From: Eledone cirrhosa
Taxonomy: Eukaryota
NCBI GenBank assembly: GCA_964016885.1
Contig: OZ024741.1
Coordinates: 175,646,001 to 175,710,000 of the forward strand
Length of the DNA stretch: 64,000 bases
Direction: 5' to 3'
In this document: piece after piece, positions 9,788 to 58,992 of the stretch
Layout of the letters: each line of letters opens with the position of its first letter
How positions within the stretch are numbered: the first letter of the stretch is position 1
The notes under the pieces: model-generated
Seen by the model: the letters and a program-made list of their open reading frames with translations, nothing else
Told to the model about the DNA's origin: nothing
The model's database searches: none
Made by a program: the position numbers and the translations under genes

Positions 9788-9790
<3 letters not shown>
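9492..9790 (+). mobile_element. Rearranged SINE(s): head, ~65-bp filler, then second SINE body; its (TTA)n tail (to ~9814) is the first target of the nest
   Basis: Head repeats 9298; SINE sequence resumes at ~9645. Confidence 0.8.
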
Positions 9791-9813
<23 letters not shown>

Positions 9814-9818
<5 letters not shown>

Positions 9819-12636
9819 GCATTTATCTTGCTTTATGTTCATAAGAGTTATCACCAAGTCACAACCAGTGACCTCAAGAGACAACAAGGTCCGCCATGTT
9901 CAAGAAAGAACATACATAATCACACATGCATCTTTAGTGTTTAGACTTGTGATGTACTTATATTGACAGAATCTTCCTTAGTATATGGGCAGTTCCCATT
10001 AGTACTATCTTTTGTATTTCTCCTATACGCGGGTTTCCTGGGATTTGCGATATGTAATCATTAGACCCCTTAGGTATCATTCCCAGAGCGCCTACAACCA
10101 CTGGTATTGTTTTAGTTCTCAATTTCCACATTTTTCCAATTTCTATCTCCAGGTCCTTATACTTGCTCAATTTTTCAAATGTTTTTATAGATACATTCTT
10201 GTCTATTGGAACAGACATATCAATTAGCAGGCATACCCTCTTTTGAAAGTCTTTCAATATTATATCAGGTCTGTTGCATCTATTTTTCGGTCTGTTTGGA
10301 TGCTAAAGTTCCACAAGATTGAGATGTGATCTTTTTCAAGTATGGGAGGTGGTTGATGCTCCCACCAATTCTTTTGATGTGGCAGGTCAAAATGCTTACA
10401 CATTATCCAATGTATGTATTGTGCAGCTCTGTCATGCTTGTTTAGGTATTCGGTTGGAGCTATAGGACTGCACATTGAAATTATATGGTCAATGGTCTCT
10501 GGTTGTTTTTTGCATACACGGCATAATGGGCTGCACCCATTTTTTACTATGTTGGCTTGGAAATTTTTTGTTGGCAGACACTGATCTTGTGCCGATATAA
10601 TCAGTCCTTCAGTCTCCGATTTCAGTCCAGAGGATGCCAACCACTGATGGGTTAAAGTTTTGTCAACATCAGGATTGTTAGCTCGCTCTGGGTATTTTCC
10701 ATACAGAGGCTTTTCTTGCCATTTCTTAGCCAGTTTCTGTAGCAGTTATTTCTTTGCAGTTACTTTTACCTGCTTTGCTTTTTCTGTGTTTTCCATTTCA
10801 GCAGTAAATGGGACTTCTGAAATTTGTAGTCCATTACTGTATCTTTGTGCATCTTTTGTAATGGAATATGATTTTTTGATGCTTTCGTGTTTCAAAACGA
10901 GTTTGATCATCCAATCATGTGATTCCCTTAGATATGTAGATAATCCAATTGTTGCAGTTTTCAACGCAATGTCTAACTCGATTAACCCACGTCCTCCTTC
11001 TTTCCTAGGGAGATATATTCTATCTATATCTGCCTTAGGGTGATGCATTCTGTGCATGGTTAAGAATTTTCGAATTTTTGTATCGAGCCTACGGATCTCT
11101 GTGCTTGACCAGTTGATGACATTGTAACTGTAGGTTACTACTGGTATGGCAAGCGTGTTTATGGCATCGATCCTATTCCTTGCATTCAATTCCGTTCTTA
11201 AGATTGCTCTTACTCTGCGGTAACATTCCTTCCTTATCCTTTCCCTCATTGTCGAGTGCTTGATTCCGTCTCCTTCACAAACACCTAGATATTTGTAAGT
11301 TTTTTCTTGATCAAGTTCTCTTATCACGTTCCCCCGATCAACATTTATGTCTGAATTTCTCAGCAGCTTTCCTCTGGTGAACGTTGCTTTGGCGCATTTA
11401 TCTAGTCCAAACTCCATTTTAATGTCATCACTGAACTGCTCCACACTGGATAATAGCCCTTGCAATTGTTCATCATTTTTTGCAAATAGTTTCAGGTCAT
11501 CCATGTAGAACAGGTGATTAATGGTTTTGTCATAGACTTTATATCCACGTTTTGTTTCATTGAGCATTTTACTTAATGGTATAAGTGCGATGCAGAATAA
11601 AAGCGGTGATAAAGAGTCACCCTGAAAAATTCCACAATTAATATTAACTTCTCCAGCTTCCAGTGATTTTGTTTCACTATTCAAAAGGAGTGTCGTTTTC
11701 CATGTCTTCATACTGAATGACAAAAACCTCCTGACAACGGGGGATATTTTGAAAATCTCTAAACATTTTTCAATCCAACTGTGTGGCAAACTATCGAATG
11801 CTTTTTTATAATCTATCCAAGCAATCGATAGATTTTTGTGTCTATTATGACAATCTTCCAGTATCATTTTGTTAACCAGAAGCTGATCCTTACAGCCATA
11901 TGAGCCTCGTTTACACCATTTCTGCTCAATGGGAAATAGGTCATTTGTTATCAGGTGGTCATATGTGTATTCAGTTAGGACTGATGTTAAAATTTTATAC
12001 ATTGTGGTCAAGCAAGTTATCGGTCTGTAATTTTTGGGATTGTTTGTCTCATCATTCTTCGGAAGCAGGAATGTAATGCCGTTAACTAGCCATGATAGTA
12101 TCTTTTCTGGCTCCTTAACTATTTCATTGTAATGTTGGGCTAACAGCTCATGAGACTCTGTGAAGGCATTTATCCAAAAGTTTTGTATTTTGTCTTTTCC
12201 TGGGGATTTCCATTTGCTGGTTTTTCTTAGAGCCAAGCGCAACTGTTCAACTGTTATATTTTCCCATATTTGTTCCTCAAGGTGAGCTGTATCTTTCATT
12301 TGTCTGTCTGTCCATGGGGCATGTATGTTATGAACTTTTTCTTCGGCCCAGATCTTTTCCCAGAATTCTTGCACTTCCTCCTTGGGTGGTATTGATTTAG
12401 CAGTTATTGTTGACTTACCAATTTTTCTGTAGAAGTTTTTTTGGTTGTTTTTGAACATATTATTGTCCTTATAGAATCTAGATCGTTTTTCAAAGCGCCT
12501 TATACGAGCAGCTTTGGCCGACACTTTTTGCTTGATTATTTCTATCAGCATGTCTATGTCACATGTTGATTTTATACTGTACTTTTTTTTCAATTTTCTA
12601 AGTTTAGTTTGTTTAACATGTTCACCTACTTTATAG

Positions 12637-12643
<7 letters not shown>
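9814..12643 (-). mobile_element. R4/Dong-like RLE LINE family A, copy A1 (5'-truncated)
   Basis: RT motifs (WKSPGKD, NYRPITCL, IDYKKAFDS, GIFQGDSLSP, FYMDD), CCHC finger CRVC..H..C, RLE (PDII..IDMSVP..EKLSKY). In-frame stop at 10746-10748; frameshift ~10258; (TAA)n on both sides. Confidence 0.93.
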
Positions 12644-12687
<44 letters not shown>

Positions 12688-56517: not shown

Positions 56518-56695
56518 AATTGTTTCTACTTTTGGCACAAGGCCAGCAATTATCCCAGTGCATTACTGGTACTATATTTTATCGACCCCGTAAGGATGAA
56601 AGGCAAAGTTAACCTCAGCGGGATTTGAACTCAGAATGGCAAGGGCCGTAACTCTTTGCGTCAAAGCATGGCGTCCGACCCTTTACCGATACTGT
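56518..56695 (-). mobile_element. SINE
   Basis: Same family, minus strand. Confidence 0.85.
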
Positions 56696-56817
56696 TAATA
56701 GTTATTGTTGACTTGTTGACTTTAATAGTTATTGTTGACTGAATCTGGAACGTTTTTTAAAGCGCCTTATGCGAGCAGCTTTGAGCAACTCTTCTTACTT
56801 GATTATTTCTATGCCTA

Positions 56818-57008
56818 CGACGGTGGTGGATTGGCAGTATCGGTAGAGGACCGGACGCCATGCTTTACAGCACAGAGTTACACCCCTCTATGATCTGAGT
56901 TCAAATCCCGCCGAGGTTAACGTTGCCTTTTATCCTTACGCGGTCGATAAAATAAAGTACCAGTAATGTACTGGTTAATTGCTGGCCTTGTGCCAAAAAG
57001 TAGAAACA
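56818..57008 (+). mobile_element. SINE with 16-bp TSD
   Basis: TSD attatttctatgccta at 56802-56817 and 57009-57024. Confidence 0.9.
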
Positions 57009-57854
57009 ATTATTTCTATGCCTATGACACTTGTTGAGTTTATGTTGTAATTTATTTTCAATTTTTTAAAATTTAGATGGTTTAACATGTTCACCTACTG
57101 TCGTCAAATCGGAGAAGGGATATTTGACGATTGATGTACTCTCGCTTCGCAGGTTTTTTTTTATGGAATTTCCTTTCGTTTTTCACTTGCACTCTACATA
57201 AACGAGTGATAACGTTTGCCGATACAGAATAAAGATGATTTAATTCAGTGATATTTAGGTTATTTGTGGTGATAGTATCTTTGAGTGCAATGCGAGTCTT
57301 ATCTATTATCGTGCAGTTTTGTTCAAAGTTCTGTTATCCTAGGGAGGTTATCACGATCATCAATGTCAGTTTCCTTTATTTTCATTCTCTCAATAATAAT
57401 TTCATTCTTCAAATCAGCAAATTCATTGATATTCTGTTCGTTGTTTTCAGTTCAGTTTGAGTTTCATCTTCGACATGTGATCCTTTCACTCTTTCGAACA
57501 TTTCATTAATCTGTTCTGTTGCCAGTGGTTACCCTCCCATCATGGGCTCTAGAGTGTTGTAAATTTCCTCGTTTTTAATTACCCTCGTATCATTTTCCAT
57601 TCTTTGGCTTTGTTCTGATTGCCTGATCTCATTAATTTCTATGTCAGTTAGCAAATTGTTTTTAATGATGTTTCTTCAGATATTAGCCACTTTGATAAGT
57701 TTTAAGATAATATGTTTTCAGGGTTTTGTTTTTCTCCAGTTGATATATGGTTCTTCTGTATTCGATCTATTTGATGGCAAGAACATAGCAGTGTAGAAAG
57801 CCTCAAGGACTTCTTTAATATCTTCCCTTGTCTATTTTACTCTCTCTTTTAGTC

Positions 57855-58992
57855 TGCCAACATGGCCATCTTAAGAGTAGGATGCTTGACTGTTCGAGGC
57901 TTGAGTTCATCCTGGAAGCAGGGTCACCTACTGAATGAGCTCAGGTCTCTAGATATGGATGTGACTGCCGTCAAAGAGACCAGGATTTCTGACACGCGCG
58001 CACTAGCACCCATTTTCAAGGACTATCAGATCTACGCATCTATTAGTCGGTCGGGAATTGGAGGTGGGGTGGCAGTGCTATTTAGGAAAGGCCTGGATCT
58101 CGAGGTAAGGTCGATCTTCCTGCTTCCGGACGGTAAGTTGGTGGTCCTAGACGTGAGCAATAGTGAAAGTCGATGCAGTTGAAATGACTAGTATTTTCCG
58201 GAGGCCTTTCAAGCCAGGGACTATGAATAATTTCCAGATATTCCTCGCTTGGCATTGATACCGTAGGGCACTACCGATTCGAGATAAACTCTACAGGCAC
58301 GTAAGAGGGGTCAGACGGACCTGATCGAGAAGCGCGCAGAACGACGAAACTGTTCTACACGCACTCATCCAGTGTCAGTGCATTACTGACGTGTGGAATT
58401 ATGTCAGACAGCTGTTATTGAGAGTAGAACGGATCCAACTATCAACTGAGTCCATAGTGAAGATAGCCCCGCTGACTTCTTTTTACGTGGAAGGGCAGGC
58501 ATTTCCCTCTGATTGGTGGCCATTGTGAAAGAGTTTGAGTGGTGGACAAGGCTGAAAGGAGTGAAGGCAGACATCTTTCTCTTCGGCTAATACCTTAGCA
58601 ACTATTTCAAGTTTCATTTGGAAAGGTGGATGAGGGTGGAGAGAGAAGGGCTACCCCCCATTACATTTGCTAAAATGTGGGTGAAAGTTGCAAGATTTGC
58701 GCGTGTGAATGGGGTTATTCTGAACATGCGCCTGTAGGCTGGTTGATTTAAGGGGGAGATGAGTGCCCTACCCGGGTGTTATTACAGGGTAGGATGGTTC
58801 CGCATTGGTGGAGTACCTGAGACGCCATAGTATGGTTATCCCCCATATTGGGGAATTTATTTTGTTATAATTTTCTTGCTTATGTTATTGTTTTTTATAT
58901 TATTTACTCATTTTTCTGTAAAATCCCAACTGCCCCCGTCTTTTGTATTGTCCCCTATATGTAGTCCCTTGTGACCAATAAAGAAATCATTA
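57855..58992 (+). mobile_element. Old, internally deleted Tx1 relative (T4): APE N-terminus fused to zinc-finger region and 3' UTR
   Basis: MAILRVGCLTVRGLSSSWKQGHLL; C-terminal homology from ~58190; ends aataaagaaatcattatt. Confidence 0.85.

Follow-up and report, generated by a model that had tools for sequence, protein, structure and literature searches.

Dong, a long interspersed element (LINE) with a restriction-like endonuclease (RLE), targets TAA repeats, and its described members (Bombyx Dong, DongAg, DongBg and Darwinula Dong1/2) carry a single open reading frame (ORF) with reverse transcriptase (RT), CCHC and RLE domains, according to PMC3812793 and PMC7998251. Microsatellite-specific families are also described in the Tx1 group: Kibi (TC), Koshi (TTC) and crocodilian Tx1 (TTCC/TTTC), which are LINEs with an apurinic/apyrimidinic-type endonuclease (APE), RT, a CCHC-bearing ORF1 and a strand-specific target (PMC4494074). 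Among the recently active LINE groups of Octopus vulgaris, Dong-R4 has the largest coverage (PMC13282606, Table 1), and Dong-R4 and L1-Tx1 are both recently active there, with hotspots of transposable elements (PMC13282606). Here we analyze 64,000 nucleotides of Eledone cirrhosa DNA (positions 175646001–175710000 of contig OZ024741.1 within the 3.0-Gb assembly GCA_964016885.1), referred to as the window hereafter, in which Dong-like LINEs, Tx1-like LINEs and short interspersed elements (SINEs) form a nest joined by (TAA)n/(TTA)n tracts. This Dong/Tx1/SINE tract pattern is real, genome-wide and mechanistically coherent.

TRAS1 and SART1 are both R1-clade elements of the APE type. In the silkworm, these two LINEs use one repeat, (TTAGG)n, in opposite directions (PMC7265360); they are telomeric, whereas here an APE element is set against an RLE element at dispersed sites. 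Another precedent is given by Keno (Tx1, APE) and Utopia (RLE), which reached one target, the U2 snRNA genes, in parallel (PMC4640811). That pair has the same 3′ flank and the same orientation within a gene, whereas here the polarity is opposite, in a repeat that is regenerated with each insertion. Both themes thus have a published precedent: APE and RLE elements arriving at a single target, and the use of a single repeat in opposite polarity. The elements of the window nevertheless differ from the known ones: two Dong-like families at 40% protein identity have one 5′ head and are stacked with an APE LINE, and the target of the Tx1-like elements is (ATT)n, or Y|ATTAT, in common with an RLE clade. 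No description of an ATT/TAA-specific Tx1, or of a Dong–Tx1 nest of opposite polarity, was found in the literature searched (Repbase, most subscription papers and supplements lay outside the search). The Dong half is known; an ATT-reading Tx1 with a likely SINE passenger, sharing opposite strands of its target with an RLE element, appears to combine known themes in a way not described before.

Elements in the window were delimited by self-BLAST, Pfam and translation, and the tract background was taken from genome samples at even spacing, 400 kb in total. The Dong-like families are called D1 and D2 and the Tx1-like ones T1 and T3, with lower-case letters for the copies. All 15 TAA/TTA tracts of at least 4 units in the window lie inside 9222–53217, and 14 of them are element junctions, as the first-pass annotation had stated of nearly all junctions between the young elements; the remaining tract (51477) is inside a Dong 5′ untranslated region (UTR), and two junctions, at 12712 and 53217, have no tract. 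In the nest, one tract occurs every 2.9 kb, compared with 21 tracts in 400 kb (approximately 1 per 19 kb) in the background. The nest had been proposed to cover about 50 kb (9790–58992). A tract-joined nest does exist there, but its young part is limited to 44 kb of abutting retroelements (9.2–53.2 kb), since the coverage by nest families and tracts falls from 96% of 9790–53217 to 10% of 53218–58992, a region that is old, decayed and tract-free. The nest contains nine Dong/R4-like RLE pieces, three young Tx1-like APE LINEs and tRNA-type SINEs. All nine Dong-like pieces have TAA on the sense strand at each tract-bearing end, while the three young Tx1-like copies have ATT on the sense strand at both ends, and an old Tx1 fragment terminates in ATTATT. 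Tx1 and Dong accordingly meet head-to-head at 22255 and 38840 and tail-to-tail at 28290 and 43515. The exception to this order is a SINE tail at 33404, which adjoins a tract of the opposite polarity. No ORF of a young LINE is interrupted by another young LINE, and SINEs are found inside old ORFs at 54611, 56520 and 56822. The Tx1/Dong junctions and the intact young ORFs agree with the arrangement described in the first-pass annotation. We also considered whether the nest consists of two separate clusters, and rejected this, because the 1.35-kb gap between the halves (31817–33160) is an old Dong of the same polarity.

Two parts of the nest resemble each other in inverted orientation (21715–28318 and 33442–39419), and two others in direct orientation (9716–12643 and 12708–15636). 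Such resemblances would be expected if the nest and its mirror-like layout had been produced by inverted or tandem duplication of DNA, or by mis-assembly. However, the identity between T1a and T1b is 98.2%, lower than that of T1a to copies elsewhere (99.4%). The private variants shared by T1a and T1b number 1, and those shared by D1a and D1b, or by D2a and D2b, number 0; since window copies share 0–2 private variants, as random pairs do, the same-family copies tested are independent insertions. In addition, the two mirrored Dong heads are 14% divergent and continue into different families, and the star-like phylogeny also argues against this origin, which we regard as extremely improbable and, in its duplication form, rejected. 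D1a lies between two exact 95-bp copies of one sequence (9720–9814 and 12712–12806), together with a 24-nt D1 3′ end and (TAA)16; this arrangement may reflect a long target duplication combined with a template jump.

We examined whether the polarity extends beyond the window. For the genome-wide flank counts, the best 40 matches per query were used and 30 loci were examined for each; the D1 3′ ends were taken from other loci, not from a genome search with the D1 3′ end. Among 300 distinct tracts outside the window, the abutting ends read TAA in 199 of 200 cases for Dong, and TTA in 149 of 149 cases for Tx1 and 60 of 61 cases for the SINE, in a count restricted to ends at tracts and with the queried ends included. 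The common target and the opposite polarity claimed in the first-pass annotation are therefore supported throughout the genome by the flank survey of each family, and the two patterns that had been named as contrary to it, non-microsatellite 5′ flanks and random orientation, did not refute it when checked in that survey. Background tracts of at least 5 units adjoin Dong or Tx1 in 7 of 9 cases, and young Dong and Tx1 copies make up 1.4% of the 400 kb background.

The 5′ flanks show the same regularity. Upstream of T1 heads, (ATT)n was found at 28 of 29 non-window loci; T3 heads have at least 4 units in 28 of 30 cases, the remaining two having 3 units; and a TAA tract precedes the Dong head at 30 of 30 loci (window included), several with GAA slippage. 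When all loci were pooled, 71 of 71 T1 heads had at least 4 ATT units, 68 of them in perfect ATTATTATT|G phase. A set chosen by the T1 3′ end (37 of the best 40 matches; the copy in the window and two others known to be truncated were left out) consisted of 29 full-length copies, three with other heads, one without 43 nt and four truncated, and an ATT tract lay upstream of all 29 full-length copies. The full-length share in this set (29/37; L091–L127) is unusually high for a LINE. Truncated copies were then counted without selection for tracts, internal deletions and ORF1-swap copies having been removed beforehand. In 5′-truncated Dong, (TAA)≥3 lies upstream in 49 of 54 copies and ATT in none, so that the 5′ tracts of Dong are its targets. 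In truncated T1, (ATT)≥3 was found in 3 of 8 copies, and none had the wrong polarity; of the two LINEs, Dong is the more strictly specific for long tracts. At two loci (L020 and L304), the tract polarity switches, with (TAA)n running straight into a short (ATT)n before the Tx1 head, as would fit an element-borne 5′ ATT.

With a length of 187 bp, the SINE is of the tRNA type and has a B box; the ARAGORN search returned no tRNA. Its 3′ flank starts with ATTAT in 89 of 113 near-complete copies. Of the 98 copies that lack long tracts, 57 have duplications of 9–27 bp; 20 of these 57 copies sit in the tail of another element, and a pyrimidine occupies position −1 in 34 of the 37 others. From these flanks, the SINE insertion site reads as Y|ATTAT, that is, ATAAT|R on the strand that would be primed. 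The L1 endonuclease cuts at T|purine. For the TRAS1 endonuclease, nicking at T|A and recognition of about 10 bp are reported (PMC7265360), and this T|purine cut resembles the SINE site. The 3′ ends of the SINE and Tx1 are also alike: a 4-bp stem with a CUUGU loop is followed by AGAAA and ATT. The stems co-vary (AACC/GGTT, GCC/GGC and, in the SINE, GGC/GCC), in a comparison whose ends were selected on the loop motif. The shared hairpin together with the insertion at Y|ATTAT suggests that the SINE is likely a passenger of the Tx1 machinery, and it is better read as such than as an independent seeder; its short site, in turn, suggests that the Tx1 endonuclease reads a short motif. SINEU, by contrast, has been linked to Tx1-Mar by target preference (PMC4494074), whereas the likely partner here is the tRNA-type SINE with the shared 3′ hairpin. 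The sections consulted of PMC3747384 and PMC4758252 contained no Tx1–SINE pair.

On this evidence, we consider it probable that the nest is a set of independent insertions in which Dong reads (TAA)n while Tx1 and the SINE read (ATT)n, likely through priming on opposite strands of one repeat. Several results weigh against this reading. At least 4 ATT units follow only 15 of the 113 SINE copies, and this value, together with that of the truncated T1 copies, implies that full-length Tx1 elements may themselves bring some of the repeat units at their heads. The similarity between the SINE and Tx1 tails exceeds that of shuffled sequences in a single setting, one SINE copy compared with older Tx1 ends (6–25 of 2000 shuffles); it does not for young T1 (560/2000) or for a second SINE copy (130–407/2000). 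The genome samples, being the best 40 matches, lean towards copies resembling the query. The nick phase of Dong is not readable from the tract junctions, and no empty allele of a single-copy Tx1 locus was recovered from contigs of four sequencing runs, in which repeats were skipped.

Some of these results would also fit the view that only Dong targets long tracts, and that Tx1 lands at any Y|ATTAT and itself makes the tracts, by 5′ read-in and a 3′ slippage tail, which Dong and Tx1 later colonize. The low tract frequency in truncated T1, the predominance of short sites among the SINEs, and the invariant 5′ phase, which suggests an element-borne ATT, are all in line with it. This view predicts, however, a non-repeat duplication outside both tracts. 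A duplication beyond the pure tract was seen in only 1 of 31 full-length Tx1 copies (33 rows minus two that matched the head of a neighbor), and this one is an interrupted tract, which leaves 0 of 31. Moreover, eight truncated Tx1-type 5′ ends adjoin tracts of at least 4 units, and 24 Tx1 tail-to-head junctions occur among the 300 tracts. The view that only Dong targets long tracts is judged unlikely.

In target-primed reverse transcription, an element that reads ATT is primed on the AAT strand, and one that reads TAA on the TTA strand. The opposite polarity is thus likely to stem from priming by the Dong RLE on the TTA strand and by the Tx1 APE on the AAT strand. The following enzymatic steps would account for the observed polarity, the flanks at both ends, the independence of the copies and the SINE motif. 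The Tx1 endonuclease would nick 5′-ATAAT|R-3′ (Y|ATTAT on the top strand), a motif that (ATT)n offers every 3 bp, and the SINE would borrow this machinery through the common 3′ hairpin (4-bp stem, CUUGU loop, AGAAA). A duplication of 12–19 bp inside the tract would leave 4–6 units at the 5′ end, with the tail units at the 3′ end, and one site would be turned into two, both usable by either enzyme. That each insertion regenerates its target, as proposed in the first-pass annotation, is supported genome-wide: with tracts left at both ends, each event would make two sites and the arrays would grow at their junctions, while the ORFs, which have no tracts, would be spared by the LINEs. The Tx1 5′ junction is invariant even though the ends of the SINE duplications vary, which suggests an RNA carrying upstream ATT. 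The invariant ATT|G junction and the many full-length copies are likely due to Tx1 RNAs that are initiated within the upstream tract and then pair with the target; annealing of the RNA to the target has been proposed for R2 (PMC3774820). More tentatively, with somewhat less than even confidence, we suggest a wider picture, in which an undescribed ATT-targeting Tx1 is the SINE partner through the CUUGU hairpin and forms, together with Dong, a mutually regenerating, genome-wide niche of polarity-coded 10–50 kb arrays, with APE and RLE nicking opposite strands of one trinucleotide repeat and tract-started transcripts making most Tx1 insertions full-length.

As the arrays elsewhere show, the nest in the window, though large, has a common structure and is not unique. 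The tract-joined arrays around 20 T1 copies are 6.0–24.0 kb long (median 13.5 kb), as measured within the 27.5 kb fetched per locus, past which 5 of the 20 extend, and an adjacent Dong or Tx1 piece was found at 17 of the 20 T1 copies. The first-pass annotation had further proposed that SINE tails seed the nests. This holds for the left edge in the window, but among 20 other nests the outer edge is a SINE tail in only 3 and a SINE head in 4, and SINE copies with long ATT runs are few, as given above; SINE seeding is a minority route. Many outer edges are mixed trinucleotide repeats, and diverged subfamilies left some of them unresolved. The five largest contigs (58.5% of the genome) hold 108 of 120 Tx1 matches and 21 of 40 SINE matches (hand counts, grouped post hoc). 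The Tx1 figure would be in keeping with passive accumulation, that is, broad insertion with survival only in microsatellite-rich, gene-poor regions. Selection cannot, however, yield strict strand polarity with a 3-bp phase, and (TA)n, a far more abundant repeat, does not occur in the nest. Passive accumulation is already largely refuted by the polarity, and we hold it to be very improbable.

The order of the elements within the nest is as follows. The left edge is formed by a cluster of tRNA-type SINEs (9299–9789, plus strand; B box present, A box unmatched by the pattern used), the last copy of which ends in its tail at 9789. A (TTA)8 tract (9790–9814) lies between this tail and the 3′ end of D1a, a 5′-truncated copy (9815–12640, minus). 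It is followed by (TAA)16 with the 24-nt D1 3′ end (12641–12712, minus), where the template jump is proposed, and by the exact duplicate of 9720–9814, comprising the SINE end and the tract (12712–12806, plus). The full-length D1b (12807–17708, minus) has an ORF (16600–12950) with RT, CCHC and an RPD..D..K RLE, and 2 internal stops. A (TTA)10 tract (17709–17738) connects its head to the tail of the full-length D2a (17739–22254, minus), and (TTA)8 (22255–22280) separates the D2a head from that of T1a. T1a (22281–28289, plus) is a full-length Tx1-like LINE with a CCHC knuckle in ORF1, APE, RT and CCHC in ORF2, and the 3′ hairpin, AATAAA and an ATT tail at its end. Its tail adjoins that of the 5′-truncated D2b (28308–31765, minus) across (TTA)5 (28290–28307), and (TTA)17 (31766–31816) leads from the truncated 5′ end of D2b to the 3′ end of the old decayed Dong-like copy that joins the two halves (31817–33160, minus; tblastn E 7e-15 to D2).

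The second half begins with (TTA)4 and an older SINE (33172–33404, plus), the one with atypical polarity, whose tail adjoins the tail tract of T1b, (TAA)~22 (33405–33470). T1b (33471–38837, minus) has an internal deletion of about 650 bp and is separated by (TAA)11 (38838–38872) from the head of D1c (38873–43513, plus), which has a 265-bp internal deletion. The D1c tail adjoins, across (TAA)5 (43514–43529), that of T3 (43530–49054, minus), whose 5′ UTR and ORF1 are distinct (44% amino acid identity to T1 ORF1) and whose ORF2 is about 94% identical to that of T1 in nucleotides. Next, a SINE (49122–49308) lies between (TAA)22 and (TAA)14 (49055–49350, minus) and reads ATT at both ends. The 5′-truncated D1d (49351–51066, plus) is followed by (TAA)15 (51067–51127), with GAA-type slippage into the head of D1e (51128–53217, plus), an older D1 subfamily (79%) with its 3′ part deleted, which forms the right, tract-free edge. 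Beyond it are old decayed Dong-like pieces (53218–57860, minus), split by SINEs at 54611–54800 (plus), 56520–56694 (minus) and 56822–57009 (plus), the first and last of which have 15–20-bp duplications starting with ATTAT, and an old, internally deleted Tx1-like fragment (57874–58992, plus; 71–73% to T1), which has no 5′ tract.

As for family identity, D1 and D2 are single-ORF elements with RT, a C-terminal CCHC and a PD..D..K RLE (motifs in D1b and D2a), and their best PDB matches in both sequence and fold are R2 proteins. The C2H2 zinc-finger pattern is absent from the first 450 amino acids of D1b and D2a, an absence that is a criterion for Dong/R4. An N-terminal helical domain is predicted (predicted local distance difference test score 82); Foldseek returned no match for it at E ≤ 0.001, and VIA gave weak matches to Sap1 (Z 6.4, root-mean-square deviation 7.8, 87 aligned) and to Zeste, NgTRF and R2 147–215 (Z 4.5–4.8). 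A diverged SANT/Myb-like N-terminal domain is described for the Dong/R4 clade (PMC7998251). Bombyx Dong has a 5′ hepatitis delta virus-like ribozyme (PMC3774820); at the Dong and Tx1 heads here, no Rfam ribozyme match was obtained, and a custom descriptor, run without a positive control, found none. D1 and D2 have a common 5′ head of about 550 bp at 86–97% identity (21715–22249, 38873–39430, 17344–17707 and 51128–51470). Among its 29 non-window matches, 5 continue into D2 and the others into D1, and the shared head suggests an exchange of 5′ UTRs between the families. A free element consisting of this head was rejected, as all 30 matches continue into D1 or D2. At one locus (L200), an apparent chimera has the 5′ part of D1 fused to the 3′ part of D2 without a tract.

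T1 and T3 are two-ORF APE-RT elements, with PF03372, PF00078 and PF13966 and a C-terminal CCHC in ORF2. The best PDB match of ORF2 is human L1 ORF2p (E 2e-52, compared with 1e-21 for R2), and the intact ORF1 has a CX2CX4HX4C knuckle at amino acid 373. A CCHC zinc knuckle in ORF1 is typical of Tx1 and is absent in mammalian L1. The name Tx1 for this lineage rests on anatomy; its target preference also exceeds the >20%-of-flanks threshold used in PMC4494074. At least three distinct combinations of 5′ UTR and ORF1 were found in front of one Tx1 ORF2, with the switch at about T1 position 2245–2330 (43530–49054; L092, L114 and L120).

Outside the nest, the first-pass annotation had assigned the (TA)n tracts to a different guild of elements. 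An RTE-like piece, a hammerhead-like core and a GIY-YIG-like end do adjoin (TA)n, but (TA)≥6 tracts are so common in the background (635 in 400 kb) that this adjacency is no more than expected by chance and does not distinguish a guild. At 60666–61636, a Penelope-like remnant comprises two hammerhead-like cores in inverted 240-bp repeats and what we take to be a GIY-YIG-like C-terminus, with (TA)n flanks; a hammerhead-like core and the GIY-YIG-like end lie near 60890–61430. An RT fragment, presumably RTE-like, is located between (TA)n tracts at 1960–2750, with a weak RVT_1 match. Two further repeat groups were noted: about six near-identical 591-bp units, five in tandem and one inverted, bounded by (TA)n (2903–6662), and a 427-bp unit that occurs three times among (TA)n, twice in direct and once in inverted orientation (62237–63399).

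Because its concepts have precedents, the present finding extends known biology and overturns nothing. It widens the target range of Tx1-type endonucleases to include (ATT)n. An intact 1139-amino-acid ORF2 is present in 20 of the 37 Tx1 copies (both ORFs are intact in 10), and the action of APE and RLE on one simple substrate is therefore directly comparable in vitro. The SINE may resemble the MetaSINE superfamily, which is marked by a 66-bp Meta domain behind the tRNA head. The partner LINEs of MetaSINEs were unknown according to PMC4824008, and a likely partner LINE is offered here for an abundant cephalopod-type SINE. Finally, the sharing of one repeat by Dong and Tx1 may explain some of the hotspots at which recently active Dong-R4 and L1-Tx1 copies are concentrated, such as those reported in octopus.

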